Shown: positions 17,301-43,500 of the stretch, in pieces | Layout of the letters: each line of letters begins with the position of its first letter | Position numbering within the stretch: position 1 is the first letter of the stretch | Source of the DNA: Pseudovirgaria hyperparasitica | Lineage: Eukaryota | Direction: 5' to 3' (one strand) | Assembly: GCA_010093815.1 (NCBI GenBank) | Contig: ML996565.1 | Length of the DNA stretch: 64,000 bases | Position numbers and translations under genes: made by a program | Notes under the pieces: generated by a model | The model's database searches: none | What the model saw: the letters and a program-made list of their open reading frames with translations, nothing else | What the model was told of the DNA's origin: nothing

Positions 17301-17399
17301 GTTCAAAAACGACAAATATAACCTATTTAGTACTACTATAGCTGTTATTTATAAACACGGCTACACGAGTATACTACTTTAGGAACGCCTTACACGAAG

Positions 17400-20300
17400 A
17401 TAATAATATAAGTAGAATACCGTGAACCTTATATCGATAAAGACGATAGTAATAGTTTATCTTATAAAGGGATTAGTTAATATAGAGAAGGGATAATAGG
17501 TGTTATAGGTAGACGCATTAGGCCAACCTTTAGTTAAGGTAATCCCTTAACTAATAACCTTACCCCTAGCGTCTCTACTAGCACATCTACTACTAGTAAT
17601 AGTATAATAGAAGCTTAAAATAACGACCTAGTAACTCGTAGAGAGATGCTTAACTTCTTCGTAGCATTTACGCGATAAGAAAGGATGGTACCTCTATCTA
17701 CCCTAGCCCCTAAGCGCTTTAAAGGAATAAATATTACGGCCTTCCTTCGGAAGTACGAGGACATATATATAAACTATAAAGTTCCGCCTAATAAGAAGAT
17801 AACCTCCCTACCGTTATACTACGAGGACTATCTCCGTCCTACTATTAAAGGAATAAGTAGGTTTTAGAAATAGTAGTAGGCCACGCTACATAAAGAATTA
17901 TTAAAGGAATTCTCTCTATTTAACTCTACCCTCAAGGAAGGTACTATCCACTTTATCCGAAAATACGTGGAAATAGTTAAAGTAGACCCATTCTACTCTC
18001 TCCCTATATACTACTCCTAGTATTATATTATCATAGAGAAACTTATAGCTAAAGGAAGCCTAAGCTCGTATTCGCGAATAGAGCTCTTCCTAGAAGGGCT
18101 GCCTAATAGTCTTAAGGCTCGGGCTATAGAGAAATGTTAACTCACGATAGAAGCACATAGTTATAACTAGGTAATTATCTATGGCTTTATATTATAAAAG
18201 GCTAGAGTACTTAAGGAACTAGCTTATATTAATAAGCACTTAGCCGTATAAGAGCTAGCCATAGCTATATACTATAAATTAAAGATAGAGAGTAAGAAGA
18301 CCGGCTTAGAAGAGTAGTTACATGAAGAAAGAAGAACTAATAAATTTAACCACCCCTCTCTAGTCGTAGTACACGTCGCGCTAGAATCGGATAAGTTTAA
18401 TGAGATAGTAGAGAGATTTAGTAAACTAGACCTTACGTTAATTAAGATGAAGTCCTACTTTATCTCTAATCCCTTATTTCTATCCCTTAAGAAGTATAAA
18501 CCTAAGCTACTTTCGGCTATTATTAACTAGTAGGCGCGAAGGCTAAATCTTTTAGTATATCTCTAAGTACGAGGCATACCTATAGAACTAACGTAAGTTT
18601 ATCCATAGAATTATATATAGAATAGAGAATACGTCTCTACCCGAGACTCCTAAGAAGGCGTTATAGCCTAGAATAGGCCTCGAAGACCGATTATATATAT
18701 CACGTATAGAGAAGATCACCTAATATATAGATATCCGGAGATAGTAGAATATATTAGAGACGGATTACTAAATATTAACGGGGTATAAGTATTCTAAGGG
18801 CGTTTCGGGGCGAACGGAGAAGAAATCCTATTACTACCCTCCTCGGTAGGGCTATAAGCTACTCTATAAGCTATCTAGAACTATATAGTAATAGTTTAAA
18901 ACGGTCTAAGCTAGTACGGAGGAGGAGTAAAGGTTTCTATATCTATAGTAAATATTAATACTTTATAGGGAGTGCCGGTATATAGTATTAGTATAAAACC
19001 TACGAAGGGTCCCTACTAGGTCTTAGTAGATAGTAATTTAGAAGAAGAAGTTATATTATCCGAGAGTAAGAAAGATAGATATATAGAATTCTACGAACGC
19101 TTCGACGTAGCTAGTAATAGATATATCTATAAGGAGATAGCCCTAGAAGAGCCTACTATACTTATAATATCTAGAAGGGGGATTACGAAGAGTATACCTA
19201 ATCGTACTAAGGAAAGAAAGATCGTCCGTCTCCGCGGAATACGTAAAGGGTAGTATATAAGAATTATTAAGGAATAGAAGGATAGTAAGAAGAGTAGCGA
19301 CTAGAGAACGTCTAAATAAGAGCTAATAGCGCTAGAGGATAAGATAGATAAAGGGGATAGCCTAAATCCTAGTTAAAAGGTATATATCTAAGGTATTAAG
19401 CTTAATAACTATCTACGCGAAGGATAGCGGCTAAGTATAGAAGCTAGCGAAGTATAGCTAGTGCGCGTTCTAGGGATAACTATAAATATTACTATTAGTA
19501 AACTATTAAGCCTTAATAGTAACTTATATCGTACGGTATTCGAGAAGGGCGCCCCCGACTTTATAGCTAGAGAGGTCTATAAGACTTAAGAAGAGAGAGC
19601 TAAGAAGAAAGGAAGAAATAACTATACTATGGCTCCCGAGATAAATAAACTTAATATATTAGCACCCCTCTATACTATAGGGACGGCTATCACGTAATAA
19701 GATATTAATTAGCTTAAGGAAGGGATAGTAAGGCTAGTAGCCGAGTATCTAAGGTACCCTATAGAAGTTAGTTCTAAAAGGGCGACTAGTATAGTACTAT
19801 TTAATAGTAGCGCATAGGTAAATAGTATTTAACTAGATACTACGAGGCGTCTCGGGCTAGCGATATCTTCGCTTCTACTATATATAAAGAACTCGAGTTT
19901 AGTTAGCGCTACTTAGTATAGCACTCTATTCGTAGGAATAGTATAGTAATACTCTATCCGTATAGGTCGGATCGTTATAGCTACTTCGATATTTATATAT
20001 AGTAAACTTAATTATAACCTTATCCTAGGGGAGCCATATACTAGATAGACCTTACTTACGGTATAGAGGTTAGCCTCCGGGTAAGTACTCTTAATAGTCT
20101 ACTCCGTATATAGATAAGAATATATAACCTTTAAAACTAGTCCGGATAAGTATATTCTAGTCTTAGAGAAGGAGGGTAACTCCGTGGCTAGAGACTAACT
20201 ATATAGCGGAGTATATCGCCGGAAGCCGGAGTTAAGCCGGATTATTAGTTAAGGGCTACCCTTAACTAATAATCTATACTAAATAGAGTCTAGTAAACCT

Positions 20301-23300
20301 ACTAATAAAGGGGATAGGCTATATTTTTATACGGATATAGAAATAAGTTATATAGAGTTACTTTCCGAGAAAATCCGGCCTAAAAATATTACTTAGTTAT
20401 TAAGAAAAGATGACTTAGCCGCCCTAGTTACGGTAGTAAGGTACGCTACCTTTATATATAAATAAGGCACGATAATAGAATAGCTTATAGTAGACTCTAC
20501 TAGCCTCTAAAGACGGTATTTATCCAGGGTATTAAAGGGATTTAGTATAGCTACTATATATAAAAGAAAGGGAGTTAAAGTACACCCTATAGATAACTCC
20601 GAAGCCTACTAAAAGGTTTCTAGGAATCTATTAGGGTATCTAGACTAGCGTGAACGAGTAATCGCATAGTAGGTACTTCTTCTAGCCGTCTACCTAGGCC
20701 TTAACGCGTTTAATAGGCTAATAGAGCCTCGAAAAGTAACTATCCCGCTAGAAATACGTCTAACGCCTCTATATATAAGTTAGCTAAAGATTAGAATAGA
20801 GCTACGTCCCACGGAACTTAAGTTACTATATATAATCTTATTATATCGCGAGGAAGCACTAGTATAGGAATTCTTATACCTTAGTAAATTTAATAAAGAG
20901 GTAGTACCTCCGTAGGAGATCCGAACGGTAGAATATAAGGTATAGTAGGCTAAGAACTTTAATATTCCTAGAGCCCTTTATAGAAAGGTACTTATAATTC
21001 TAAAAGAGCGTCTTAATAGTAGAAGGCTCGAGCCCTATAGTAGTCCTTATCGAAACGCCTATTTTCTTATAGAAAAGAAGAAGGAAGCTAATAAGGAACG
21101 AGATTATAGGTTAATTAATTCGGCGATAGAAATTAACTAAGTTACTATTCGTAATACGGCCACGCCGCCCTCGTATAAAGAGTTCTCGGAGTACTTTATA
21201 GGGATAGCCGTCTTAATATTTACTAACTTCTTCTTAGAATATAATTAGATTCTATTAGTAGAGTATTACCGAGACTTAACGGGGTTTATAACACCCCTAG
21301 AATTACTACGTAGGATAATATTACCTTAAGGGGCTACTAATTTAGTAGCTTAGTTTATTAGAATTATATTAACTATTATATAAGAATATATCCCGGAGAG
21401 GGCTCTACTATTCCTAGATAACTTAGGTATTAAAGGACCTACGACGAAATATAACTCTAAGGAGGCCCTACCTAGAATTTATAGATATATCCTAGAATAT
21501 TTAATTAACGTAGATAAGGTTCTCGCGGATATAGAGCGCGCTAGATATGCCCTAAGTAGTAAGAAGACTTAGTAGTATATTAAAGCTACTAATATTATAG
21601 AATACGTCTATAATATTAAAGGGAGGCGACCGAGTAATAAAAAGGTTACTACTATTAGGGACTAGAAACCCTATAAAAACACGACGAATATACGAGCCTT
21701 CCTTAGCGTTTATATATATTTCCGGATATAGATCCCTAGGTACGCTATTATTATATCGCCGCTATTTATACTATTAAAGAATAAATCGGCCTAGTAGTAG
21801 ATAGCTAAGAAGTAGACCTCGATAGACGCGCTAAAGATAGCTCTAACTACTACTCCCGTACTAATAACGTTACGGTACGGGATAGATACGGGAGATATAA
21901 TTCTAGTAGTAGACTCTAGTAACGTTAGGTAGGGAGCTACGTTAATATAGGAGAACGAGAATCGTAAATATTAGCTATCGCGGTATAATAGAGGAATATA
22001 GTTAAAAGCTAAGAGAAACTACGACACCGTGAAGCTAGAGTACCGAGCCCTCCTCTACGCGTTATAGAAGTTCCGGTAATACCTCTATAGCACGTACTTT
22101 ATTATAGAAATAGACGCGAATACTCTAGTCGCTTAAATTAACCATACCGTAACTAACTTACTAGGGGCGCTTATTACCAGGTGGCTCGCGTGGATTTAGC
22201 TATAGAACTTTATAGTTAGGTACGTACCTAGGAAGCGTAACGTAGTCGCCAACGGTATCTCACGGATATATAAAGGAGAAGAACCACTAGACGTCTCTAC
22301 CTTTAACCTAGACGAGTTCGTGGATATGGCTCTATATATAGACGTACTAGAGACGTCGTTAATTAAGCCCGTTAGCGGGAGAGATTATATAATAGGGATA
22401 CTCGACTATACCGCCATTAAGTCTCCCTTAATAGATAAATATAGCGATAAATAGTAGAGGATTACGAAGTACCTTACTATACTTAAGAGGCTAACTAACC
22501 TAACCGACCGAGCGTATAAGGCCTTTATAACCGACTACCTAAAGTTCCTCGTGTATAACCGAATACTCTAGCGGAGAGGAGATAGGTATTACTAATATAC
22601 ACGAGTGATTAAGGATCTAAATACTAGGGCGTATATAATTACCGCTACTTACGATAAGATAGATTATAGAGGTAGCGAAGGGACCCTCGGAAGGATTAAG
22701 GATAAGTATTAGTAGATAGGTATACGTAGAGACGTGCGATAGTATATAAAAACCTATAATAAATATTAATAACGAAGTAAACTCCTCGGAGATCTTAATA
22801 AAGGGCTCTACTACGTTATAACGTCTATTCTTTAGTAAAGAATATACTTAGATGTAATAACGCTACTACCTTCTATAGAGTATAGTAAAGTGGTATCTAT
22901 ACGAGAATAGCTAAGCGGATAGACTAAGGCGGAGGCATGTACGGCGGCCACGTCTATAGTTATTATAAAGTTCCTCTTTAAGAACGTAATCTATAGATAT
23001 AGAATTATTTCTAAAATTACCTATAACGGTAGTAGAGAAAATATAGGTGCCATAGAGGAGCTCCTCCGACTCTATGGAATTTATTAGAAGGTTATGTCTA
23101 TATATAATCCCTAAGTAAATAGAATTATTAAGAGAAGTTTTATACTACTTACTAATACTCTCGCGAAGATAACTAATAGCGGATTCAAGAACTAGCGCGG
23201 CTACCTCCATACGGTCGTCTAGGTAGATAGAATAATAATACGTGCTAGCATAGGGTATAGTACTATATATCTCATGCTCGGCCATAAACTAATCATACCT

Positions 23301-23909
23301 ATTAAAGTCGAATTCGAGTCGCTCTAAATACTCCCTTAGGACGAGGTACGATTAACGTCCGACTTACTTACTCTTTAAGCTAGATAACTTAAGAGAAGAT
23401 CCGAGGATCTTAAGGAGGCCTATACCTACGCGATATAAACGCGTAAGAAATTAAGAGAGGTATAGAATAACGACTATTACCTTCATTAAGAGTCGTTACT
23501 AGTTAATACGATTATCCTTCTATACGACTCGTAGTAATAGAAGAATATAGGGCGGAAGCTAAGATAGTATTAGAGGGGGCTATATAGAATCCAGTCCGTG
23601 TTTAATTATACTTATAAGCTTACGGAGCTTAATAGAGCCATACTTAGAGGGACGTTTCCTAGCTATAAGTTAAAGAAATATTTTATAAGAAATATAAGTA
23701 ATAAGAGTTATAACGAGCCCTCACGACTACTAATTAGAAGAATTACCAAGGAAAATAAGGAGAGTAGTAATAAGGAAAACTATTATAAATAACTTACGGA
23801 ATACCTCGACGACGCCACACGAACCCAGGTAGAAGTGGTAATTCCTACTCTATAAGACTTTAATAGAGAAGAATATTTACGTTTCCCTAGAATTAACATC
23901 TCCTTCTAG
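17400..23909 (+). pseudogene. A1 single-frame gag-pol (PR-RT-RH-IN)
   Basis: Gag piece (17685), protease LFNSSA (=DSG, about 19797), RT FLDNLGI (=FLDD, 21411) and the 23598 ORF are in one frame. Also RNase H LVVDSS (about 21903), integrase HHCC (about 22650-22770) and a GPY-like motif (about 23577). The start is approximate. Confidence 0.92.
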
Positions 23910-24580
23910 AGGATAGAAGTTTTTTTAAGGAGGGAAGGGATACTTATAAAAGTAGTCTTATAACGATAAACTCCATTATCGAAAAAGGACGATGAACTCC
24001 ATTATCGAAAGAGGATAATAAACCCTATCATTACTATAAAATGATAAAACTTATTATTAAAGTAGACAATGCTCGAAAGAAGACATAATGGCGTTTACGC
24101 GAATTCTACCTACCATATATTAAAGCCGGTCGTGTAATCAAAGCCTACCTATTAAAGGCCTATTTCGTTACTATAGAACGGGCCCTATTAGAAACTAATA
24201 AGGAAGAAAAGAAGGAGAAGGTATAGGAGAAAAAGATACTTATAGGAAGTCTTATAAGGATAAGAATATACCCGGTATCTATTCATTTATAGATTCCGCT
24301 ATATACCCGGTAGACACATTCATTTATAATATACCTAGTATATATTTATTCATAAATTCGACACGTATACGGGCCTACGGCCGTTAGTAAGGATTATTCA
24401 TAAAAATTACTATATACCCGGCATTCGAGAAGGCATAAAAAGAGAACTTAAGATAGTATATAACTCTTCCCTCTTACACCTCTCTATACCTCCTTAATTA
24501 ATAAAACCTCCTCCTCTACTTCCGCCTCGCTTAACTACCTCTTCTTAGAATATAACTCGCCGATAGAACCGATAATAATA

Positions 24581-27514
24581 ATAGCCCCGCCGAAAAAGAA
24601 AACGCCTACCTATAAAGAGTTATAAGATCGTTAAGTACTAATAAGATAGATACGGTCCTAGTTAAGAGTCGTAAGTACTAAAGTAGAGCTATTAACGGCT
24701 ATCGTGGTATTAAGGCCATCTACTACTCTATACGGATAGGCTATAGAAGCTACGGAAGTAAATAAGTCTACTATTAACCGAATTATCGCTATCTAGGACC
24801 CGTAAGAGTAATAGAACTATATTCTAGACACGTTTAATAATCTCCTTCACATTACTAGCCTCGTAGAATAGCTCTTAAGTAGTATAGTTAACCTCTTCTA
24901 GGAAGTAGGAGCCGTAATAGGGTATAGTAAGGTAAAGATTAACTCCTCCATTCCGAAAGAAGTCTATAAGATAATTTATCGTGGAAGAGATACTAACTCC
25001 CGTATCCTAAAAGCTAAAAATACGATCCTATAAAACTAGCGAAAAGACCTCTCTAATAATAATAGCTAGTTACTCTAATCCGCCCTCGGATAGCTCTAGT
25101 AAATATAGAACTTTATAGAAAAGCTAGTAGCGCTCTTATAAATATAGACATGGGCGAGAGCGAGGAACTAGTTAAACGTATCCCTATAGTCCCGAATCGG
25201 CTAGGGATAGAAGAGAAGAGGAATTAAGGTATATCTTTAGAGCTCTAATATTAATACCGCCCTAGCTAGTAATAGTAATGAGGACGGTCTATCTCTCTAG
25301 TAACTCTCGAACTACCCTAGCCGATAAAATAAACTAACGTTCTATAATAAGATAGGACTTATTATCCCCGCTAGTTAATAGTTACGGATAAGTAGAATAG
25401 TTTATAGGCCTATCGAATACTACCTATAAATTGAAGAGATAAGTATATCGCCTCCGCCTTAGACCTTACCGTCACTAAAACTAGTATAGGTAACGCCTAT
25501 GGTAAAGTCCCCTCTATAAAGCACGCCTTCTAGTTTAGTAGCACGTCGTCTCTTTAAAGCTAGTCATCCGTTTAAAGTAAGTATTCCTCCTACTACTACT
25601 AGTATACGTCTCTTACTAGGCTATACGAGAACCTCTTTAGTACCTATTACGGCCACGCCGATAAAACCCACTCGCGGACGTACCTTATCTACCGGCCCTT
25701 AGTAATTACTAGGGGCGCCTATACGATAATCCCCGGTTATTCTTAGTTCGCACCCTAAGATAATAGTATCGGTTAAGAAAGAGGACGAGCCTAAGAAGTA
25801 TTAATACGCGCCTTTAGTAACGAAGACTTTTAAGGTAGCTATATTATTAAAGAAGAATTTCACGAGCATTAAGGGAATGGCCCTACTAGTACGCTAGAAA
25901 GCGTAGATAGGTAACATAGCTATTCCGTATAAAGTCTACTATAAGCATTACTAAGACGTGGCTAGAAAGAATAATATACTCGTTAGCGTGTTCTACTTAA
26001 ACCTAGTAGCGAGACTTAAAATAGTATATAAGTTTAGAGATAATGTGGGGGCCCTTAAAGTTTATAAGGACTACTATATCTAGTTCGCGAAGTACGCGCG
26101 GCTACCTTATCCAATAGAGGTATTAGGTATCTATTATTACTAGGCCCTAGAGACCCCGAAGCAAGTTATTAATATTAAAACTATCCTTACTAGTATCGCA
26201 TTTATAATTTAGAAGAAGGATAGTAGGATAGGTAGATAACTCTTCGATAAGTAGGAACGTACTAGAAGTATTAATATTAAAGGGCTCTTCGAGCTACTTA
26301 AAAAGACAACCTCTATACTTAATAAGAGTATCCTAGAACTCGCGAGGGATGAATTTAATATATATAAGTACTACTAGCGCATGTTTAATAAGAAATCGAA
26401 CTACGGCTAGCTACGAACTATATACCACTCCTATATCTAATAGTTTATTAGGTAATACCTACTTTACTAGCTTATCTATATTACTCTTCGGCCCGATCTT
26501 AACTACTATCTAATCTTATACCCGTACTATACGAAGTCCTAGGATAGAGGCGATAAGACGGGTTTTAAGTATCTCGATAACGCCATTAATCGAATCCTCG
26601 ATCCTAGTAATAGACACGGGTTTAATATAATCTAGGGGAGTATTAGTCTCGACGACGAACGAAGTAACGACTATACTATAATCATTCCCCGCTTCTATAA
26701 GTTCTTAAACGAATAGTAGTTAAAGACTAAGCTCCGCGAGAGGGTCAATTAAAATAGTATAATTATAGCTATTAACGATAAGATCTATAATACGGACGAT
26801 AAGAAACGATTTAGTCCCTTTGTTCTAGTCCTCTACCAGTCCCTTAAAGTACGTATCTCTAGCCTACTAATAATATACGGCGCCTAGGGTCCCGTAAAGG
26901 GTGGAAGACGCACGATACTTCTATAGTATATCGCGATTAGCCCTAATTACATAATAATAGAAGTACCTAAAATAGGCATATAGGAATAACTCGTAGTAGC
27001 TTATAGGAATTTAACTCCGGGACCTACGTCTCTATCGGGATTTTCTAATAAATATAGCGCGATTTCTTTTGCCTTCCTAGCCGTAGTTTAACTCCTGAGT
27101 TTTAACGCCGTTAGTAACGTATTAGTTAGCCGTAAAAGATAGGATAGCTAGAAGATAAAAGAAGAGGTAGCTACATAGCTTAACGTAAGTCCTTAATAAC
27201 TTAAAGCTAAGGTAAACGCCTGGTTTAAGGAGGGCTCGAGGGTATTTATAGAGACCTTTAAGAAAATAGTAAGGTAGAAAAGGCTAGTCTATAGGGATAG
27301 GTCGTTCTAGAAGGAATTTAATAAGGCGCGCGCCGCTAAGCGGCTAATTAATTTTAAGAAATTTAAGTCTAACGCGGGCCTAGATAACATTAAAGAGAAC
27401 TTCTATAGATAGAAGAGGCCTAACGAACTATCCGACGAGGAGGAATCTAACCTCTCTAAGATAAGCGACACGATTCTTTAGGAGCTGGCTCGCGACCTCG
27501 AGTACTAAGATTAG
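24581..27514 (+). pseudogene. A1 extra ORF (about 975 aa) with a PhyH-like 2OG-Fe(II) dioxygenase domain
   Basis: A2 keeps ATG GCC CCG CCG AAA. In one frame: YPYY...GFK(Y/H)LD (HxD, 26570-26578), *GSISLDDE...(C)TIIIPRF(H), ISSPLII(H)GA (26876; CAC retained in A2), GGRRTIL(P)(W)Y. Confidence 0.75.
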
Positions 27515-28439
27515 ACGCCTAAAAACCTACCTAATTATTAGTTAAGGGCTGCCCTTAACTAATAATCCGGGCTAAGGTTTACCCGCGCTAAGAGGTTTAC
27601 TAGGGGCGTATTTTATTTATATTAAGGTCTTTCTTTTAGGCGTTCTTTACACGGTTTGTTACACGGTTACTATACTACTAAGGGTAGTAGTTCTATAGGC
27701 CGGGGAGGTATATATGGAAGGCCGCTCCTATAGCCCTATATATATATATCCCTAGCTCGATCACATGGCTTTATTATATATTTAAGGAGGGCGTTTTCCT
27801 TGGTCATTCTACTCGGCGCGCTTCCCCCATTACTAATATTCGACTATTTAACCTTTTCTTACGTTTATAGGCCTCTATGGGTATTAATTATTAGGCTTAG
27901 CTATTAAAGAATTAATTAAGAGTATTATATAGACCCGTTCTATCGTAAAAGAGAACTAATAAGAAGTCGTGCGTTTAAAGAGAACTTATAATACCTAGGA
28001 GAGATACTTGTGAGTTCGTCGCGACTACTATACTAGGAACACAGCCATTTATAAAAGGGATACACGTAGCGATGGCTCACCACAATAGGCACTAGGCTTA
28101 GGACTAGATCGGGTGGTTTTCCGCGTGGGCGATATAAACGGTATATTTAGAAGCCTACTATAACGTATTAACTATAATCCAACTATATAGGAACGTCGCG
28201 CTATGAGTATAGTAGCGGGATTCATCCGTCTAGCGCGCGTAGGTAAGCTCGAGATATATATACGCCGATAGATATCGGCATATATCGATATATTACGACT
28301 ACTAAGCGGTGTATACTAATATATGCCGGTATATCCGGTATATACCGGTATAATACCGTCGCTCTTCCGTGGACATAATACTATTTATATATCTTAGGTT
28401 TTTAGTTATTAGTTATGTATAGTATTATATATATAGCGG

Positions 28440-29130: not shown

Positions 29131-29588
29131 TATGTTAGACGGTTAAACTTTTATATAATACTATTTACTTATACCTATATTTACCTAAGCCCCGATTCGA
29201 TAGCCTTCTATAACATACTATATACTCGGTCGGCGAGCTACTAGACTTATATAATAGTAGTATACTACCCCACTTTATATACTACTTAAGCTACTATTAC
29301 TTTAGCCTACGTTAATCTTAGCTTCCTTTAGTCGTCCCTATATTATAAAAGAAAACTTCTATAAACCTTTCCTCTACTTATCTTAGTTTTTAAACCTAAA
29401 TCTTACCTTCTATACTTTATTCTATATTAATCACGACTATATACGAACGCTACGTCGAACTCGACTCTATTAACCCTTAAGGTCTATTCTATATAATAGT
29501 TAACGAGGTCATATTTATAGTTCATAATATGGATTAAGAACTTATTACATTCGGTAATGTTTAGGACTAGTCTACGCTTAACGTAATT

Positions 29589-29790
29589 AAGCCTTACGTT
29601 TAAGCCGAGCCTTACGCTTAAGCCGATTCTTACGTTTAAGCCGAGCCTTACATTTAAGCCGATCCTTACGTTTAAGTCAAGCCTTACGTTTAAGCCAATC
29701 CTTACGTTTAAGCCGATCCTTACGTTTAAGCCGAGCCTTATATTTAAGCCGAGCCTTATATTTAAGCTAAGCCTTACGCTTAAGTCGAAG
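29589..29790 (+). repeat. 18-bp coding tandem repeat, about 11 copies (de-RIP E/D-P-H-V-Q-A)
   Basis: TTAAGCCGAGCCTTACGT units, in frame in the helicase N-terminus. Confidence 0.9.
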
Positions 29791-30317
29791 CTTATAATAC
29801 GACTACCGTCTCGACTAATAATAAACCACTCGTCTTTAGTATACTTACCGGTAACTACCGTCCTAACGACGAGTATAAACTTAAGAAGGTCTAAAGTAGT
29901 AAGGCTCCCGTTCCTACTTACGCTACCTATTAGATCTCTCTTATATAGGGCGATCTATAGTTAACCTTTAGGAATGTCTATGGTATTAGTAGAGAAACAG
30001 ATGGACTTAAGTAGGAATAAGCGAAAACTTAAGCTGAGCTTAAGCTAGTAGTATTTAAGGCTCGTGGTAAAGGTCACGGCTTTAAAGAGTCGATTAGTTA
30101 TATATATAGATTCCTTGAATTCCCTAAGTACCGCTCTTAGATTAAGTTACGTGCTCGCTTCCGATAGATTAACGAAGGGAAATCGGTATCCTTAATAAGC
30201 TTACTCCGCTTTAATCGTACTAATATTCTTCTATCGTCCGACTACCCTACGGTATAGATCTTTAAGATTGAGTAAGTAGGCGACTTTATCGAGTATTTTC
30301 CTAAACTTCCTAATCTC

Positions 30318-30918
30318 TATTAGGCACGTGAGGAGCACGTGGCCTACTAGTTAATTATACATGTATATAGTAGTCGTATATAAGTAGTATACTCCACCCT
30401 TAAAGTAGTAGCTTTAAGATTCAGTCCTTTTAGTATAGTTAGTTAGTACGTGGAGCCCGCCTCCTTATATAATCTTAAAGCTACTACGGGGTCACGGGTT
30501 CAACTCTCGGTCTAGTTAACCGTTATTGAATTTCGCACGATTCCGTTTAGCTTACTACGTTACGTATACTTTATGCACGTAACGGATGACATGGTGGTAA
30601 CGTTACTACGGTAAGTTAGCGTGTCTGGTACTGGAGGCGGCATTACGAGTATTGGTTATGTATATACATGGTTTATACTAGGCCTGTTACGGCTAGTTTA
30701 GTTTATCTTTCGTAAGGTAGTATGCCTACGACGCGTAAGGACACGCGCCTTTGAAAAGGGGGATAATGTTAGGCACGTAAGGAGCACGTGGCCTACTAGT
30801 TAATTATACATGTATATAGTAGTCGTATATAAGTAGTGTGCTTCACCCTTAAAGCAGTAGCTTTAAGATTCGGTCCTTTTAGTATAGTTAGTTAGTGCGT
30901 AGAGCCCGCCTCCTTATA
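30318..30918 (+). mobile_element. TRIM (non-autonomous mini LTR retrotransposon), 601 bp
   Basis: 152-bp LTRs at 30318-30469 and 30767-30918. 5-bp TSD ATCTC. PPT gaaaagggggataa. 297-bp noncoding interior. Confidence 0.95.
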
Positions 30919-33900
30919 ATCTCATTATAAGCGAAGCGGATAAAGCCAATATACTATATATTAACACCGGCCTCTACGAAGACCCTCGTGACTTTTAGGT
31001 TATCGAACTTATAGCTAGCGAGCTTCTTAGTGTAGGTTTTACCATCCCGTCGTATATTAGACCCGATATAATACACGAATAAGTAAAGCAATTCTTTAAA
31101 GATCTAGGTGCTTATACTATAGTTCGTATCTTGCTACCGCTACGTAACCCTATGGATTTTACCGGCTTTAATAATAAGCTTAAACTAGAGAGCGATCCGA
31201 TTAATTCATGGTATATAGGAGTTACTACTCCCTATATATAATACGGTATAATAAGTAGGCCGGATACTTAGCCCTAGATCTCTATTCCCTACCGCGAGTC
31301 ATTCGATAAGAAATTTAACTACCTAATATATATCGCTATAAGCACCTTGTAAGACAAATAGACGGATCTCCTATTATCCTAATTCCAAGACGTTACCGTT
31401 AGATATATCTAGCTCTTAGGTGTTACTTAGGCGCTCTTAGCTATCGTCTATCCTATTAATGCGAAAGGATTCTATCGCATAGAACCAGGTAGTCGTGGGT
31501 ACCTTAAAGTGGATTTAAAGGATTATAATGACGACATATACCGCTTTAAAGTCCTTCGATTTTGCCTAGGTATCCTTCTATTTAAATGCCTCGCTCTAAA
31601 AGTCTTTAATAAGGTTAGGCGTCCTCCTAAAGCACCTAAGGTACTAATTATATTAATGGATGCGGTTACTAATATAACTCGAGCTCGTCCTAAACATTTT
31701 ATTCGGACTAGCGATACTAGTTTAAGTATAATTAGGTCGTCCCTTACTACGCTTATAGAGTTTACGGACGTTCCGGCTTTAGTTAGCGTATAAACCTATG
31801 ATAAGCTTACTAAGCAACGTATTAATACGTGCTAGAAACTAACCTACCACGCCGTGTAAGCTTCTAGAGACGGCGGCGCAGACGACCACGCCGCTTAGGA
31901 TACGTTTAATACGATGGTCCTTAATGTTATTATGGACTCGGTGTCTATATCTCTAATATATAGGTCCCCTAACCCTAACGACGAGATTCTAGATTATAGT
32001 ATAGAGCCTTAGGATACCCTTGTTACTCTTTCTAAATTATCTATATCCCTAGATAATAATAAGGATACGAATATAGAATATAGTTACGATGTTATTAGCG
32101 ACGAAGGTTCTATTACTAGCCCCGTCGCCGATATATACACACTCCTAATATTATCCAAAGTCTACTCTAGTGTCCTATCCCCTTTACCACCCTCTATATA
32201 GGACCTAATACTCGGTAATAACTACCTAAATCTTTAACCCGTCGACTACAACCGCTATATTAAAGATTATGAAAGATTCTATAATCTCTAGGATATTATA
32301 CGTTCGGAACTATCTCCCTAATAATAGTATACCTATATATAGGCGATAGACGTACTTAGGGCTTAGTTCCTACTTTACGGCTATAGAGGAGCTAGGAAGA
32401 GCCATTTATAGCTTCGTCTACTACTAGCTACACTTCTAATTAATGAAATAAACGGTGCTCCTATTATCACTTATACTACTAAGGTAGTCATCCTATCTAG
32501 CGATGTAATAGCGCACCTCCCTACGCTAGGTTCCACCTAAATATATAGAATATATATACATGTTATTATCGGCCTAACTAACGAAACCTACGACGACGCT
32601 ATAAGAAAAGCATATAAATATACGAGTAATATATTTACTTACTATAAGTCTCTAAAGATACTAGTTATTCTTTAAAGATACCCCGAAGCCGTTAATCGAG
32701 AGGTTTTCTTTACTATAGCTAGACTATCTTATCGCGGCGACCCTCTTATCGGGCTAACCTAGGATAATATAATAGGCGGTACTATCCTCGCGTAAGCCTA
32801 GGCCGACTATAGTAAATAACTATCGGAATATAGCACGGATCCCCGTGCTCGTCTATAGGAACTATATACCGGTTACGTTACGCTCGAGGTCGTTAGACTC
32901 GTTAAATCTCGATACTAATATGAATAGATCCCTAAGAATTTTAAGAAAGAAACGGCTCGGCTATTACGCGCTATCTATAAACGTTACGCTCGTAATAAGG
33001 ACATATCTAAGGAGGAGTATAATAGGATGAACGAGCTATACCTCGCTACCTAGGACCTAGTTACTATCCACGCCTAGATTTATATAGGGACTCTATATGT
33101 TATGAACATCGCTAAGGTAGCCCGTAATATATATCCGATTTTAGTTATAATAGAAGGGGCTACGTATATCCTTAAAAGTAATATACTCGGGATTATCGTT
33201 AATTATACTACTATGGAATAGTAACCGACATTTATTTACGTCGGCGACCTACGCTAGCTCGACACCTACTAGCGTAATAGTACTAATATATAGACCGTAA
33301 ACCAGAGGATCTCCTTTATAAAGCGCTAGATATAATATAGTTTCCCGACTACTTACCTTACCGAGTTAGAACGCTTAGTTCCTAGTGTAGTGAGCTATCG
33401 CTACGTGTGTCCCTTTTATAAATGGCTGTATTCCTAGTATAGTAGTCGCGACGAACTCACAAGTATCTCTCCTAGGTATTATAAGTTCTCTTTGAACGCA
33501 CGACTTCTTATTAGTTCTCTTTTATAATAGGACGGGTCTATATAATACTCTTAATTAATTCTTTAATAGCTAAGCCTAATAATTAATACCTATAGAGGCC
33601 CATGAACGTAAGGAAAGGTCGAATAGTTAAATATTAGTAATGGGGAAAGCGTGCCGAGTAGAATGACCAAGGAAAACGCCCTCCTTAAATATATAATAAA
33701 GCCATGTAATCGAGCTAGGGACATATACATATAGGGCTATAGGAGCGGCCTTCTATATATACCTCCCCGGCCTATAGAACTACTACCCTTAGTAGTATAG
33801 TAACCGTGTAAGAAACCGTGTAAAGAACGCCTAAAAGAAAGACCTTAATACGAATAAAATGCGCCCCTAGTAAACCTCTCGGTACGGGTAAACCTTAGCC

Positions 33901-33955
33901 CGGATTATTAGTTAAGGGTAGCCCTTAACTAATAATTAGGTAGGTTTCTAGGCGC

Positions 33956-36889
33956 CTAATCTTAGTACTTAAGGTTGTGAGCCAGCTTCTAAAGAATCGT
34001 ATCGCTTATCTTAGAGAGGTTAGATTCCTCCTCGTCGGATAGTTCGTTAGGCCTCTCCTATCTATAGAAGTTCTCTTTAACGTTATTTAGGCCCGCGTTA
34101 GACTTAAATTTCTTAAAATTAATTAGCCGCTTAGCGGCCCGCGCCTCGTTAAATTCCTTCTAGAACGACCTATCCCTATAGACTAGCCTTTCCTACCTTA
34201 CTATTTTCTTAAAGGTCTCTATAAATACCCTCGAGCCCTCCTTAAACTAGGCGTCTACCTTAGCTTTAAGTTATTAAGGACTTACGTTAAGCTACGTAGC
34301 TACCTCTTCTTTTACCTCCTAGCTATCCTATCTTTTACGGCTAACTAATACGTTACTAACGGCGTTAAAACTCGGGAGTTAAACTACGGCTAGGAAGGTA
34401 AAAGGAATCGCGCTATATTTATTAGAAAATCCCGATGGAGACGTGGGTCCCGGAGTTAAATTCCTATAAGCTACTACGAGTTATTCCTATATACCTATTT
34501 TAGGTACTTCTATTATTATATAATTAGGGCTAATCGTAATATACCATATAAGTATTATACGTCTTCCACCCTTTACGGGACCCTAGGCGCCGTGTATTAT
34601 TAGTGGGCTAGAGATATATACTTTAAGGGACTAGTAGGGGACCGGGACGAAGGGACTAAATCGTTTCTTATCGTCCGTATTATAGATCTTATCGTTAATA
34701 GCCGTGATTATACTATTTTAATTAACCCTCTTACGGAGCTTAGCCTTCGACTACTATTTATTTAAGAACTTATAGAAGCGGGGAACAATTATAGTGTAGT
34801 TATTACTTCGTTCGTCGTCGAGACTAATACTCCCCTAGATTATATTAAACCCGTATCTATTACTAGGATCGAGGATTCGATTAATGGTGTTATCGAGATA
34901 CTTAAAACCCGTCTTATCGCCCCTATCCTAGGACTTTACATAGTACGGGTACGAGATTAGATAGTAGTTAAGATCGGGCCGAAGAGCAATATAGGTGAGC
35001 TAGTAAAGTAGGCATTACCTAATAAACTATTAGATATAGGAGTGGTATATAGTTCGTAGCTAGCTATAGTTCGATTTCTTATTAAACATGCGCTGGTGGT
35101 ACTTATATATATTAAATTCATCCCTCGCGAGTTCTAGGATACTCTTATTAAGTATAGAGGTCGTCTTTTTAAGTAGCTTAAAGAGCCCTTTAATATTAAT
35201 ACTTCTAGTACGTTCCCACTCGTCGAAGAGTTACCTACCTATCCTACTATCCTCCTTCTAAATTATAAATATAATACTAGTAAGGATAGTTTTAATATTA
35301 ATAACTTACTTCGGGGTCTCTAGGGCCTAGTAACGATAGACACCTAATGCCTCTATTAGATAAGGTGGCCGCGTGTACTTCGCGAACTAGGTATAGCGGT
35401 CCTTATAAACTTTAAGGGCCCCTACGTTATCTCTAAACTTATATACTATTTTAAGTCTCGCTACTAGGTATAAGTAGGACACGCTAACGAGTATATTATT
35501 CTTTCTAGCCACGTCTTAGTAATACTTATAGTAGACTTTATACGGAATAGCTATGTTACCTATCTACGCTTTCTAGCGTACTAGTAGGGCCATTCCCTTA
35601 ATGCTCGTGAAATTCTTCTTTAATAATATAGCTACCTTAAAAGTCTTCGTTACTAAAGGCGCGTATTAATACTTCTTAGGCTCGTCCTCTTCCTTAACCG
35701 ATACTATCATCTTAGGGTGTAAACTAAGAATAACCGGGGATTATCGTGTAGGCGCCCCTAGTAATTACTAAGGGCCGGTAGATAAGGCACGTCCGCGAGT
35801 AGGTTTTATTAGCGTGGCCGTAATAGGTACTAAAGAGGTTCTCGCATGGCCCGGTAAGGGACGTATACTAGTAGTAGTAGAAGAAATGCTTACTTCGAAC
35901 GGACGACTAGCTTCGAAGAGACGACGTACTACTAAACTAGAAGGCGTGCTTCGTGGAGGGGACTTTACTATAGGCGTTATCTACGCTGGTTTTAGTAATA
36001 GTAAGGTCTAAGGCGGAGGCGATATACTTATCTCTTTAATTTATAGATAGTATTCGACGGGCCTATAAACCATTCTACTTATCCGTAACTATTAACTAGC
36101 GGGAATAATAAGTCCCGTCTTATTATAGAACGTTAGTTTATTTTATTAGCTAGGGTAGTTCGAGAGTTACTAGAGAGATAGACCGTCCTTATTACTATTA
36201 CTAGCTAGGGCGGTATCGATATTAGAGCTCTAAAGATATACCTTAATTCCTCTTCCCTTCTATCCCTAGCCGATTCGGGACTATAGAGATACGTTTAACT
36301 AGTTCCTTACTCTCGTCTATATCTACATTCGTAAGAGCGCTACTAGCTTTTCTATAAAGTTCTATATTTACTAGAGCTATCTAAGGGCGGATTAGAGTAA
36401 CTAGCTATTATTATTAGGGAGGTCTTTTCGCTAGTTTTATAGGATTATATTTTTAGCTTTTAGGATACGGGAGTTAGTATCTCTTCTACGACGAATTATC
36501 TCGTGGACTTCTTTTAGAATAGAGGAGTTAATCTTTACCTTACTATACCCTATTACGGCTCCTACTTTCTAGAAGAGGTTAACTATACTACTTAAGAGCT
36601 ATTCTACGAGGCTAGTAATGTGAAGGAGATTATTAAACATATCTAGAATATAGTCCTATCGCTCTTACGGGTCCTAGATAGCGATAATTCGGTTAATGGT
36701 AGACTTATTTACTTCTATAGCTTCTATAGTCTATCCGTACGGAGTAGTAGATGGCCTCGATACTATAATAGCCGTTAATAGCCCTACTTTAGTACTTACG
36801 ACTCTTAACTAGGACCGCGTCTATCTTATTAGTACTTAATAATCTTATAGCTTTTCACGGGTAGGCGTTTTCTTTTTCGGCGGGGCCAT
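33956..36889 (-). pseudogene. A2 extra ORF with PhyH-like 2OG-Fe(II) dioxygenase domain
   Basis: ATG at 36889. The distal His codon CAC is retained at 34594-34592. Confidence 0.75.
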
Positions 36890-37568
36890 TATTATTATCG
36901 GTTCTATCGGCGAGTTACGTTCTAAGGAGAGGTAGTTAAGCGAGGCGGAAGTAGAGAAGAAGGTTTTATTAATTAAGGAGGTATAGAGAGGTATAAGAGG
37001 GAAGAGTTATATACTATCTTAAGTTCTCTTTTTATGCCTCCTCGAATGCCGGGTATATAGTAATTTTTATAAATGATTCTTACTAACGGCCGTAGGCCCG
37101 TATACGTGTCGAATCTATGAATAAATATATACTAGGTATATAGGAAATCTATAAATAAATATGTCTACCGGGTATATAGCGGAATCTATAAATAAATAGA
37201 TACCGGGTATATTCTTATCCTTATAAGACTTCCTATAAGTATCTTTTTCTTCTATATCTTCTTCTTCTTTTCTTCCTTATTAGTTTCTAACGGGGCCCGT
37301 TCTATAGTAACGAAATAGGCCTTCGATAGGTAGGCTTCGATTACACGACCGGTTTTAATATATAGTAGGTGGAATTCGTATAAACGCTATTATATCTTCT
37401 TTCGAGCATTACTTACTTTCATAATAAGTTTTATTATTTTATAGTAATAATAGGGTTTATCATCCTCTTTCGATAATAGAGTTTATCGTCCTTTTTTAAT
37501 AATAGAGTTTATCGTTATAAGGCTGCTTTTATAAGTATCCCTTCCCTCCTTAAAAAAACTTCTATCCC

Positions 37569-40500
37569 CTAGAAGAAGATATCGATTCTAGGGAAACGTA
37601 AATATTCTTCTCTATTAAAGTCTTACGGAGTAGAAATTACTACTTCTACCCGGGTTCGTGTAGCGTCGTCGAGGTGTTCCGTAAGTTATTTATAATAGCT
37701 TTCCTTATCGCTACTCTCCTTATATTCCTTAGTAATTCTTCTAATTAGTAGTCGTAAGGGCTCGTCGTGACTCTTATTACTTATATTTCTTATAAAATAT
37801 TTCTTTAACCTATGGCTAGGAAACGTCCCTCTAAGTATAGCTCTATTAAGCTCCGCGAGCTTATAAGTATAATTAAACACGGACTAGATTCTATATAGCC
37901 CCCTCTAATACTATCTTAGCTTCCGCCCTATATCCTTCTATCGCTATAAGTTATATAGAAGGATAATTATATTAACTAGTAACGACTCTTAACGAAGGTA
38001 ATGGTCGTTATTCTATGCCTCTCTTAATTCCTTACGCGTTCGTGTCGCGTAGGTATAGGCCTCCTTAAGATCCTCGGATCTTCTCTTAAGTTATCTAGCT
38101 TAAAGAGTAAGTAAGTCGGATATTAATCGTATCTCGTTCTAAGGGAGTATTCGGAGCGACTCGAATTCGACTTTAATAGGTATGATTAGTTTATGGCTAA
38201 GCACGAGGTATATAGTACTATACCCTATACTAGCACGTGTCGTTATTCTATCTACCTAGACGACCGTATGGAGGTGGCCGGGCTAGTTCTTGAATCCGCC
38301 ATTAGTTATCTTCGTAAGAGTATTAGCGAGTAGTATAAAACTTCTCTCGATAATTCTATTTACTCGGGAATTATACGTAGATATAACCTTCTAATAAATT
38401 CTATAGAGTCGGAGGAGCTCCTCTATGGCACCTATATTTTCTCTACTACTATTATAGGTGATTTTAGGAATGATTCCGTATCTATAGATCACGTTCTTAA
38501 AGAGGAACTTTATAATAACTATAGACGTGGCCGCCGTACATGCCTCCGCCTTAGTCTATCCGCTTAGCTATTCTCGTATAGATACCACTTTACTATACTC
38601 TATAGAAGGTAGTAGCGTTATTACATCTAAGTATATTCTTTACTAAAGAATAGACGTTATAACGTAGTAGAGCCCTTTATTAAGATCTCCGAGGAGTTTA
38701 CTTCGTTATTAATATTTATTATAGGTTTTTATATACTATCGCACGTCTCTACGTATACCTATCTACTAATACTTATCCTTAATCCTTCCGAGGGTCCCTT
38801 CGCTACCTCTATAATCTATCTTATCGTAAGTAGCGGTAATTATATACGCCCTAGTATTTAGATCCTTAATCACTCGTGTATATTAGTAATACCTATCTCC
38901 TCTCCGCTAGAGTATTCGGTTATACACGAGGAACTTTAGGTAGTCGGTTATAAAGGCCTTATACGCTCGGTCGGTTAGGTTAGTTAGCCTCTTAAGTATA
39001 GTAAGGTACTTCGTAATCCTCTACTATTTATCGCTATATTTATCTATTAAGGGAGACTTAATGGCGGTATAGTCGAGTATCCCTATTATATAATCTCTCC
39101 CGCTAACGGGCTTAATTAACGACGTCTCTAGTACGTCTATATATAGAGTTATATCCACGAACTTATCTAGGTTAAAGGTAGGGACGTCTAGTAGTTCTTC
39201 TCCTTTATATATCCGTAAGATACCGTTAGCGACTACGTTACGCTTCCTAGGTACATGCCTAACTATAAAGTTCTATAGCTAAATCTACGCGAGCCACCTA
39301 GTAATAAGCGCCCCTAGTAAGTTAGTTATGGTACGGTTAATTTAAGTAACTAGAGTATTCGTGTCTATTTCTATAATAAAGTGCGTGCTATAGAGGTATT
39401 ACTAGAACTTCTATAACGCGTGGAGGAGGGCTTGGTACTCTAGCTTCACGGTATCGTAGTTTCTCTTAGCTTTTAACTATATTCCTCTATTATACCGCGA
39501 TGGCTAACGTTTACGATCCTCGTTCTCCTATATTAACGTAGCTCTCTACCTAACGTTACTAGAGTCTACTACTAGAATTATGTCTCCCGTATCTATCCCG
39601 TACTATAACATTATTAGTATAGGAGTAGTAGTTAGAGCTATCTTTAGCGCGTCTATCGAGGTCTACTTCTTAGCTATCTACTACTAGGCCGATTTATTCT
39701 TTAATAGTATAAATAGCGGCGATATAATAATAGCGTACCCGGGGATCTATATCCGGAAATATATATAAACGCCAAGGAAGGCTCATATATTTATCGTGTT
39801 TTTATAGGGTTTCTAGTCCCTAATAGTAGTAACCTTTTTATTACTCGGTCGCCTCCCTTTAATGTCGTAGACGTATCCTATAATATTAGCGGCTTTAATA
39901 TACTACTAAGTCTTCTTACTACTTAGGGTATATCCGGCACGCTCTATATCTATAAGAATCTTATCTACGTTAATTAAATGTTCTAGGATATACCTATAAA
40001 TTCTAGGTAGGGCCTTCTTAGAGTTATATTTCGTCATAGGTCCTTTAATACCTAAGTTATCTAGGAATAGTAGAGCCCTCTCCGGGATATATTCTTATAT
40101 AATAGTTAATATAATCCTAACGAACTAAGCTACTAAATTAGTGGCCCCTTAAGGTAATATTATCCCGTATAGTAATTCTAGGGGCGTTATAAACCCCGTT
40201 AAGTCTCGGTAATGCTCTACTAATAGAATCTAATTATATCCTAAGAAGAAGTTAGTAAACGTTAAGACGGCCATCCCCGTAAAGTACTCTAAGAACTCTT
40301 TATATAACGGCGGCATGGCCGCATTACGAATAGTAACTTAGTTGATTTCTATCGCCGAATTAATTAACCTATAATCTCGTTCCTTATTAGCTTCCTTCTT
40401 CTTTTCCACGAGAAAATAGGCATTTTAATAAGGACTACTATAGGGCTCGAGCCTTCCGCTATTAAGACGCTCTTTTAGGATTATAAGTACCTTCCTATGA

Positions 40501-43500
40501 AGGGCTCTAGGAATATTAAAGTTCTTCGCCTACTATACCTTATGTTCTACTGTTCGGATCTCCTACGGAGGTACCACCTCTTCGTTAAATTTACTAAGGT
40601 ATAAGAATTCCTATACTAGTGCTTCCTCGCGATATAATAAGATTATATATAGTAACTTAAGTTCCGCGGGACATAGCTCTATTCTAATCTTTAGCTAACT
40701 TATATATAGAGGCGTTAGACGTGTTCCTAGCGGGATAGTTACCCTTTAAGGCTCTATTAGCCTATTAAACGCGTTAAGGCCTAGGTAGATAGCTAGAAGA
40801 AGTACCTACTATGCGATTACTCGTTCACGCTAGTCTAGATACCCTAATAGATTTCTAGGAACCTTTCGGTGGGCTTCGGAGTCATCTACGGGGTATACTT
40901 TAACTCCCTTTCTTTTATATATAGTGGCTATACTAAATCCCTTTAATACCCTAGATGAATACCGTCTTTAGAGGCTGGTAGAGCCTACTATAAGCCATTC
41001 TATTATCGTGCCTTATTTATATATAAAGGTAGTATACCTTACCGCCGTAACTAGGGCGGCTAAGTTATCTTTTCTTAATAACTAAGTAATATTTTTAGGC
41101 CGGATTTTCTCGGAAAGTAACTCTATATAACTTATTTCTATATCCGTATAAAAATATAGTCTATCCCCTTTATTAGTAGGTTTACCGGACTCTATTTAGT
41201 ACGGATTATTAGTTAAGGGTAGCCCTTAACTAATAATCCGGCTTAACTCCGGCTTCCGGCAATATACTCTACTATATAGTTAGTCTCTAGCTACGGAGTT
41301 ACCCTCCTTCTCTAAGACTAGAATATACTTATCTAGACTAGTTTCGAAGGTTATATATTCTTATCTATATACGGAGTAGACTATTAAGAGTACTTATCTA
41401 GAGGCTAACCTCTATACTATAAGTAAGGCCTATCTAGTATATAGCTCCCCTAGGATAAGGTTATAATTAAGTTTACTATACATGAATATTAAAGTAGCTA
41501 TAATAATCCGACCTATGCGGATAGGGTATTACTATACTATTCCTATAAATGGAGTACTATACTAAGTAGCGCTAACTAAACTTAAGTTCTTTATATATAG
41601 TAGAAGCGAAGATATCGCTAGCCTAAGACGCCTCGTAGTATCTAGTCGAATACCATTTACCTATACGCTACTATTAAATAGTACTATACTAGTCGCCCTT
41701 TTAGAACTAACTTCTATAGAGTACCTTAGATACTCGGCCACTAGCCTTACTATCCCTTCCTTAAGCTAATTAATATCTTATTACGTAATAGCCGTCCCTA
41801 TAGTATAGAGGGGTGCTAATATATTAAGTTTATTTATCTCGGGAGCCATAGTATAGTCATTTCTTCCTTTCTTCTCGGCTCTCTCTTCTCGAGCCTTATA
41901 GACCTCTCTAGCTATAAAGTCGGGGGCGCCCTTCTTAAATACCGCACGACGTAAGTCGCTATTAAGGCTTAATAGTTCGCTAATAGTAATGTTTATAGTT
42001 ATCCCTAGAACGCGTACCAGCCATGCTTCGCTAGCTTCTATGCTTAGCCGCTATCCTTCGCGTAGATAGTTATTAAGCTTAACGCCTTAGATACGTGCCT
42101 TTTAACTAGGATTTAGACTATCCCCTTTATCTATCTTATCCTCCGGCGCCGTTAGCTCTTATTTAGACATTCCCTAGTTACTACTCTTCTCGCCGTCCTT
42201 CTATTCCTTAATAATCCTTATATACTACCCTTCATGTATTCCGCGGAGATAGGCGATCTTTCTTTCCTTAGTATAATTAGATATACTCTTCGTAATCCCC
42301 CTTCTAGATATTACGAGTATAGCGGGCTCTTCTAGGGCTATCTCCTTATAGATATATCTATTACTAGCCACGTCGAAGCGTTCGTAGAATTCTATATATC
42401 TATCTTTCTTACTCTCGGGCGACGTGACTTCTTCTTCCGAATTACTATCCGCTAAGGTCTAGTAGGGACCCTTCGTAGGTTTTATACTAATACTATATAC
42501 TAGCACTCCCTATAAAGCGTTAATGTTTACTATAGACGTGGAAACCTTTACTCCTCCTCCGTACTAGCTTAGACCGTTTTAAACTATTACTATATAGTTC
42601 TAGATAGCTTATAGAGTAGCTTATAGCCCTACCGAGGAGGGTAGTAATAGGATTTCTTCTCCGTTCGCCCCGAAACGCCCTTAGAATACTTATACCCCGT
42701 TAATATTTAGTAATCCGTCTCTAATATATTCTACTATCTCCGGATATCTATATATTAGGTAATCTTCTCCGTACGTGATATATATAATTAGTCTTTAAGG
42801 TCTATTCTAGGCTATAACGCCTTCTTAGGAGTCTCGGGTAGAGACGTATTCTCTATTCTATATATAATTCTATAGATAAACTTACGTTAGTTCTATGGGC
42901 ATGCCTCGTACTTAGGGATGTGCTAAAAGATTTAGCCCTCGCGTCTACTAGTTAATAATGGCCGAAAGTAGCTTAGGTTTATACTTCTTAAGGGATAGAA
43001 ATAAGGGATTAGAGGTAAAGTAGGACTTTATCTTAATTAACGTGAGGTCTAGTTTACTAAATCTCTCTACTATCTTATTAAACTTATCCGATTCTAGTGT
43101 GACGTGTACTACGACTAGAGAGAGGTAGTTAAATTTATTAGTTCTTCTTTCTTTATATAACTACTCTTCTAAGCCGGTCTTCTTACTCCCTATCTTTAAT
43201 TTATGGTATATGGCTATGGCAAGCTCTTATGCGGCTAAGTACTTATTAATACGAGCTAGTTCCTTAAGTACTCTAGCCTTTCGTAATACGAAGCTATAGA
43301 TAATTATCTAGTCGTAACTATATACTTCTATCGTGAGTTAACATTTCTCTATAGCCCGAGCCTTAAGACTATTAGGTAGCCCTTCTAGGAAGAGCTCTAT
43401 TCGCGAATATAAGCTTAGGCTTCCTTTAGCCATAAGTTTCTCCGTAATAATACGATACCGGGAGTAGTATATAGGGAGAGAGTAGGATGGGTCTACTTTA

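Follow-up and report, generated by a model that had tools for sequence, protein, structure and literature searches.

A RIP-inactivated, gene-less LTR element with a putative self-priming site in a fungal genome

Introduction

Which polymerase transcribes a retrotransposon of a few hundred nucleotides that encodes nothing, and what primes its reverse transcription? Both questions are raised by an LTR element at positions 30318–30918 of a 64,000-nt stretch of contig ML996565.1 (Pseudovirgaria hyperparasitica, GenBank assembly GCA_010093815.1), the whole of which we refer to as the window. Gene-less LTR elements of this kind, known as TRIMs, are characterized by direct repeats of ~100–250 bp, a short interior and a total length below ~1 kb. 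An original prediction made from the sequence proposed that (i) the 17 nt behind the 5′ LTR are complementary to a segment of the LTR and form a self-priming site, and that (ii) this site is bracketed by the two parts of a tRNA-like Pol III promoter, the A box in U5 and the B box in the interior, from which a transcript would start near the primer segment. A lack of tRNA similarity was among the outcomes it named as speaking against the proposals. Here, we describe the structure of the element, its RIP history and its relatives in public sequence data, and evaluate both proposals by complementarity statistics, predicted RNA folds and tRNA searches.

Results

Element structure and surroundings

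The element comprises 601 nt of non-coding DNA on the + strand (30318–30918). Two LTRs of 152 nt each, at 30318–30469 and 30767–30918, enclose an interior of 297 nt (30470–30766) that is likewise non-coding, contains no ORF of at least 30 aa and shows no likeness to any other part of the window. The 5′ LTR starts with TA at the position where the 3′ LTR starts with TG, and it ends with TA. On both sides the element is bordered by the same five nucleotides, ATCTC (30313–30317 and 30919–30923, + strand), which form a target-site duplication. A polypurine tract, GAAAAGGGGGATAA (30753–30766), abuts the 3′ LTR, and a putative primer-binding site (PBS) of the self-priming type (30471–30487) begins 2 nt past the final base of the 5′ LTR. 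Because the polypurine tract and the position of the PBS fit only the + strand, the element is assigned to this strand and the reverse orientation is ruled out. Within 30318–30918 we found no ORF of at least 30 aa; one minus-strand ORF of 35 aa merely overlaps the element edge. By the size of its repeats and interior, the absence of coding sequence, the polypurine tract, the complement at the position of a PBS and the target-site duplication, the element is a TRIM, as the original prediction had called it. BLAST detects no second copy within the window, where the best other match to the element spans 18 nt.

In U3, a TATA-like 8-mer, TATATAAG, is located at 30377–30384 (+ strand), 28 nt upstream of position 30405, at which we place the presumed RNA 5′ end. 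The same 8-mer occurs 48 times in the window, counting both strands, and is therefore weak evidence for a start at 30405.

The surrounding DNA contains other repeats. Two copies of an 11.4-kb LTR retrotransposon (16651–28097, + strand; 33373–44827, − strand), 93% identical and with LTRs of 374 nt, are inverted around a 5.3-kb stretch that holds the TRIM, and a 33-nt near-perfect palindrome (ATTATTAGTTAAGGG..CCCTTAACTAATAAT) is found inside both of them (27534–27566 and 33904–33936). At a distance of 500 nt, the TRIM is preceded by a minisatellite of ~13 AAGCCGAGCCTTACGTTT-like units of 18 nt (29571–29812). Another family is represented by four copies of its 226-nt LTR, which are 83–93% alike (3027–3252, 4090–4315, 6459–6684 and 59207–59432); a common interior of 1.0–1.2 kb follows two of them, and the LTR carries the 12-mer TAGTATAGTTAG, to which we return below. 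We considered this family as a second example of self-priming and rejected it, as the longest complement found is 9 nt and lies 23 nt behind the LTR. Runs of N total 986 positions (5332–5341, 7745–8355, 49199–49208 and 56956–57310) and represent assembly gaps or masked stretches.

RIP and related copies

The window is AT-rich DNA with a fungal RIP signature. The TpA/ApT ratio is 2.26 in the element and 1.64 in the window (the usual RIP threshold is above ~0.9), and the ratio (CpA+TpG)/(ApC+GpT) is 0.42 and 0.28, respectively (usual threshold below ~1.0). The two LTRs differ at 9 of 152 positions; all nine differences are transitions, and seven of them set TpG or CpA against TpA. The copy at 30318–30918 is dead, inactivated by RIP.

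Relatives of the element were sought in Logan contigs from four public runs under one organism label (X1–X4), of which X1 and X2 may be the source sample of the window assembly. Contig pieces that match 30250–30990 at a likeness of at least 80% number 1,562 in X1 and 765 in X2; these pieces are unitigs of ~100 nt and hence give no copy count. Among the 40 of 60 variants listed, all located outside 30282–30500, alternative letters at single sites occur in up to 34 distinct contigs, and nearly all differences between contigs and element are transitions. The number of pieces, the recurrence of alternative letters in many contigs and the predominance of transitions therefore show a multi-copy family that has been diversified by RIP. 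Purine-rich tracts are also present upstream of the LTR start in the loose ends of other copies in the public contigs.

Two observations document that the family has moved. Three contigs (two in X1, one in X2) join position 30310 directly to 30917 and thus skip 606 nt, i.e. the 601 nt of the element and one 5-nt duplication, with 7 ambiguous letters at the joint; this joint is an empty site, found in a further copy of the repeat that hosts the element. In X3, which stems from a second study, a 940-nt contig contains a solo LTR that starts with TGTCAGG, ends with CA two letters past 30916 and is flanked on both sides by CTTTT, its own 5-bp duplication. The solo LTR is therefore an independent confirmation of the TG...CA ends and of the 5-bp duplication, and together with the empty site it establishes the mobility of the family. 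Scans of metagenomes with degenerate patterns for the U5/PBS junction and for U3 returned 0 loci each.

The copies also vary in structure. Several of them, including the X3 solo LTR, proceed from the first GGCACGT directly to 30791 and skip 30779–30790. The ~11–12 nt that these U3-short copies lack correspond to one unit of a short tandem duplication, and the TRIM family therefore includes at least two U3 length variants. Contigs of X3 and X4 match 30469–30836 at ~91% and carry unrelated letters ahead of this match, among them a PstI-like site; the junction at 30469 is probably the end of a restriction-site library fragment. Contigs of X1 and X2 diverge past 30574 (4 and 5 records, respectively). 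Either 30469 or 30574 could be the point at which the interior of the TRIM departs from that of a related, perhaps autonomous, element.

The fold-back behind the 5′ LTR

As the original prediction had stated, nucleotides 30471–30487 are the exact reverse complement of 30405–30421. All 17 positions pair (17/17), with 49 nt between the two arms. We compared this length with two controls. When the 25 nt that follow the LTR were shuffled 20,000 times, the longest complement to the LTR measured 12 nt, and among 19,758 random 25-mers of the window it measured 14 nt. The 17-nt fold-back is thus far beyond chance. Its polarity is that of a PBS, as the paired LTR segment points with its 3′ end towards the base adjoining U5. 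In the RNA fold predicted for 30405–30530, the 17-bp helix is retained and closes a loop of 49 nt that contains two small hairpins; within this loop, a small GC hairpin, GGAG-CCCGC-CTCC, is predicted at 30452–30464 in U5.

The sequence of the helix varies among LTRs and copies. Position 30406 in the 5′ LTR reads T where the corresponding position 30855 in the 3′ LTR reads C, and 30864 reads C in some copies; at these two helix positions RIP seems to have struck both arms, by coincidence without disrupting the pairing. Rfam returns four matches on 30400–30530, all of them miRNA hairpin models on the 17-bp helix. Their E values (0.005–4) and scores (10–23 bits versus gathering thresholds of 70–245) mark them as generic matches to a long hairpin, and we rejected miRNA models as an explanation for 30405–30487.

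A further pairing is seen in variant copies. With G at 30851 and C at 30864, 30848–30855 becomes the exact reverse complement of 30860–30867. In the 5′ LTR the corresponding stretch is 30399–30418 (30848–30867 in the 3′ LTR), so that the variant 8-bp hairpin straddles the presumed RNA start and overlaps the primer segment. This hairpin could compete with the fold-back or regulate it.

Tests of tRNA likeness

The strings from which the split promoter had been composed are found where they were placed. The LTR string spans 30872–30900 in the 3′ LTR; its counterpart in the 5′ LTR (30423–30451) has A for G at 30423 and 30448 and includes the A-box-like 12-mer TAGTATAGTTAG at 30431–30442, which is repeated at 30880–30891 in the 3′ LTR. 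The T-arm- and B-box-like string GGTCACGGGTTCAACTCTCG (30490–30509, + strand) is unique in the window, and none of 100 shuffles yields a match. It contains GGTTCAACTC (30497–30506), a perfect GGTTCRANYC and the sole such match in 64 kb. The core GGTTC (30497–30501) belongs to the interior, downstream of the PBS; neither LTR contains it, and the B-like motif follows only the 5′ LTR. From start to start, the A-like and B-like strings are 66 nt apart.

The tests of tRNA likeness were all negative. ARAGORN reports 0 genes in the window and 0 in each of three constructs, the native sequence and two splices from which 30457–30487 had been removed, whether run at default settings, with introns or with the -ps setting, which we take as 95% of the default thresholds; the splices follow the removal of 30457–30487 that the original prediction had suggested. 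Two constructs that carry the less mutated letters of natural copies at 12 sites are likewise negative. Lowering the threshold to 80% gives one call in the element, a "tRNA-Ile" at 30436–30521, and 37 calls in the window (112 with introns), so that the call in the element is noise. The Rfam tRNA model has no match at E values up to 10 on 30200–31000 (801 nt) or on 30400–30530 (131 nt), and the single Rfam match on 30200–31000 is an unrelated viral pseudoknot with an E value of 2.7. The lack of tRNA similarity named in advance as evidence against the split promoter is thus what both programs return.

Neither motif exceeds chance expectation. GGTTCRANYC matches once in the window compared with 0.47 expected, and 41 of 100 shuffles contain at least one match. 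For the A-like pattern TRGYNNAGTTRG, five matches compare with 2.87 expected, and 16 of 100 shuffles contain at least five. Three of these five matches are the identical 12-mer TAGTATAGTTAG in the unrelated 226-nt LTR family (4112, 6481 and 59229); the A-like 12-mer is a common string of the RIP-mutated DNA at this locus. Each canonical A-box pattern matches at a single site of the window, in both cases outside the element. The window has 107 RIP-tolerant A-like sites, and 5.0% of its positions fall within 35–95 nt downstream of such a site; hence a pair of A-like and B-like strings is expected in a few percent of windows once the B-like 10-mer is given.

Positions 30881 and 30884 are G in other natural copies, with which the A-like string still fits TRGYNNAGTTRG. 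At position 30501, T accounts for 58,781 of 62,056 depth units in X1 and 29,448 of 32,119 in X2, and it is also the letter of the main contigs of X3 and X4; C is kept in the remaining depth of X1 and X2 and in one X3 contig. Since RIP only converts C to T, the family probably descends from a master copy with C at 30501. Where the 5′ LTR has A at 30448, the 3′ LTR has G, and other copies have G in place of the A at 30884; the proposed D-stem pairing is thus partly a product of RIP after insertion. With G at 30884 and 30897, the four pairs of the D stem would consist of one Watson–Crick and three G–U pairs.

The remaining parts of a tRNA were sought in the folds and in the sequence. A T-arm-like hairpin is absent from both the minimum-energy and the centroid folds, and 30488–30530 folds with z = +1.02, 168 of 200 shuffles folding at least as well. 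The element sequence contains neither an anticodon arm of tRNA form nor a strand behind the T-arm-like string that pairs with GGTCCTT. Runs of T are limited to TTTT at 30428 and 30877, and no run reaches five. We examined a depletion of T runs as a hint of Pol III transcription and discarded it, as two TTTT in 601 nt compared with 3.6 per kb in the window represent no depletion. The tRNA-like strings are likely a chance resemblance, made closer in U5 by RIP mutations and by the low complexity of DNA mutated in this way.

Discussion

Proposed mechanism

We consider it probable that the locus holds a RIP-inactivated copy of a multi-copy, gene-less and self-priming TRIM that depends on a partner element, and that its tRNA-like strings are there by chance and not as a Pol III promoter derived from a tRNA. 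Transcription of the active element would begin within the 5′ LTR, at 30405 or a little further upstream; the short U3 (30318–30404), which has a TATA-like 8-mer 28 nt ahead of 30405, would probably direct RNA polymerase II to this start. The pairing extends 26 nt beyond the A-like box on the upstream side, which argues for a start no later than 30405. The leading 17 nt of the transcript (30405–30421) would then pair back onto 30471–30487, and, by analogy with Tf1, the RNase H of the partner would cut past the paired segment and free a 3′ end that could prime minus-strand DNA. The polypurine tract at 30753–30766 would prime the plus strand, and the integrase of the partner would insert the copy with a 5-bp duplication. 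In this scheme we infer the polymerase, the start site, the RNase H cut and the partner. An autonomous partner was not found in the 64-kb window. The flanking 11.4-kb elements were considered for this role and rejected, since BLAST shows their LTRs to be unrelated to those of the TRIM; the 40 nt behind their 5′ LTR contain no complement of at least 8 nt to the 5′ LTR and one 8-mer complement to the 3′ LTR.

Alternative explanations

In the split-promoter model, U5 supplies the A box of a working type-2 Pol III promoter and the interior past the PBS supplies its B box, so that both boxes come together at the 5′ LTR alone; Pol III would produce the self-priming RNA, which would make the element a split-promoter TRIMp3. 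The perfect GGTTCRANYC, unique in the window and with a probably ancestral C at 30501, speaks for this proposal, as do an A-like string 66 nt upstream, a spacing workable for a type-2 promoter, and the absence of any run of five or more T from the element. The G letters of natural copies at 30881 and 30884 also leave the A-like string within its pattern. Pol III-type TRIMs do exist, namely Cassandra, Helenus and Ajax, and the 601 nt of the element fall inside the range of 311–1263 nt given for Helenus by Kojima (PMC10886601). These points are set against the tRNA searches, the motif statistics and the folds, none of which supports the split promoter: ARAGORN and Rfam find no tRNA similarity in any tested form, the A-like 12-mer recurs in an unrelated LTR, the less mutated D stem is reduced to one Watson–Crick and three G–U pairs, an anticodon arm and a 3′ acceptor strand complementary to GGTCCTT are absent, and the T arm is not predicted to fold. 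A TTTT run moreover separates the presumed start from the A-like box. Starts of tRNA-type Pol III transcripts lie ~10–20 nt upstream of the A box, but the pairing begins 26 nt upstream of the A-like box, beyond this usual range. Chance alone would produce a motif pair of this kind in a few percent of windows like this one, and the survey comprised ~250,000 windows. We regard the split promoter as very unlikely, and we see hardly any chance that a master copy carried a type-2 Pol III promoter assembled only at the junction of 5′ LTR and interior, with a transcript that served as both template and primer and needed no tRNA.

Two further readings were weighed. The strings might be the decayed relic of a real tRNA or tRNA-SINE that once lay inside the element and is now past recognition and function, the priming site having evolved or been inserted within it. 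We judge this unlikely: the A-like and B-like strings do stand in the right order, on the same strand and at a workable distance, and Kojima (PMC10886601) proposes that TRIMp3 elements originated by SINE insertion into the LTR of a TRIM, but the B-like part here lies outside the LTR, where a single insertion into the LTR would not place it, the ARAGORN and Rfam tRNA searches are negative, and acceptor or anticodon remnants are absent. Alternatively, the 17-nt fold-back might be a dimerization or packaging hairpin, or the by-product of a near-palindrome at the start of R, with priming achieved in another way. The position and polarity of the fold-back, which are exactly those of a PBS, speak against such a role, as does the precedent of self-priming in fungal Ty3/Gypsy elements (PMC4600332, PMC6934838). 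A PBS complementary to a tRNA is not evident, the window holding no tRNA for comparison. The variants G at 30851 and C at 30864, which render 30848–30855 complementary to 30860–30867, are the evidence on the other side, as they make the region palindrome-rich and offer alternative pairings; we nevertheless consider a fold-back without a priming function highly improbable.

Implications

If the self-priming TRIM is the correct reading, the element is a well-delimited gene-less parasite of self-priming fungal retrotransposons, documented by a target-site duplication, an empty site and a solo LTR. Our literature search did not find this combination of a gene-less self-priming element with a target-site duplication, an empty site and a solo LTR. 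The description is of use for repeat annotation in RIP-rich fungal genomes and for the search for the partner element. The locus further illustrates that TA-rich DNA mutated by RIP can mimic D-arm and A-box strings of tRNAs, which calls for caution with tRNA-like assignments. A split Pol III promoter, if true, would be a new way to limit transcription to the 5′ LTR and would join SINE-like transcription with Tf1-like priming, an arrangement that the evidence does not favour.

Comparison with known systems

With TRIMs in general the element shares its size (601 nt, with 152 nt in each LTR and 297 nt in the non-coding interior), the presence of a PBS and a polypurine tract in that interior, the 5-bp duplication and the presence of many copies. 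It differs in that its PBS is complementary to the element itself, whereas theirs is complementary to a tRNA, and our search of the literature found no paper describing a self-priming TRIM. Among TRIMs associated with small RNAs, for which Kojima's paper was the sole relevant one found in a literature search on TRIMp3, Cassandra has LTRs derived from 5S RNA, and Helenus (tRNA) and Ajax (5S) constitute TRIMp3 (Kojima 2024, PMC10886601). According to that paper, each LTR of Helenus contains a recognizable tRNA-like sequence with boxes A (TRGCY..YGG) and B (GGTTC), and the PBS is complementary to the 3′ end or the anticodon loop of a tRNA; Kojima did not find the tRNA-like part and the PBS to be complementary to each other. 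Fungal Helenus elements are described there from Pucciniales and three Agaricomycetes, not from ascomycetes, and have 5-bp duplications (PMC10886601). By this description, our element resembles Helenus as a TRIM with strings that recall Pol III boxes, a 5-bp duplication and a size within range; it is distinguished from Helenus by the lack of detectable tRNA likeness, by a B-like string outside the LTR and by a PBS that pairs with the element itself. Because it lacks two features of Helenus, the tRNA sequence and the location of both boxes in the LTR, it should not be filed as Helenus.

The closer parallel is Tf1. Like Tf1, the TRIM has a PBS directly behind the 5′ LTR that is complementary to a segment of its own LTR, taken as the RNA 5′ end, and not to a tRNA; it also shares with Tf1 a fungal host and a target duplication of 5 bp. 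Pairing with the PBS in Tf1 involves the first 11 nt of the RNA, and the RNase H cut falls between bases 11 and 12 (PMC7175516); for Tj1, self-priming has been proposed (PMC4600332). In contrast to Tf1, the TRIM carries neither gag nor pol and must borrow them, its pairing extends over 17 nt compared with 11 in Tf1, and its RNA start and RNase H cut are predictions. By this analogy, the TRIM most likely primes its own copying as Tf1 of yeast does. The element would combine the working of the Tf1 type with the build of a TRIM, which makes it a modest variation on known kinds.
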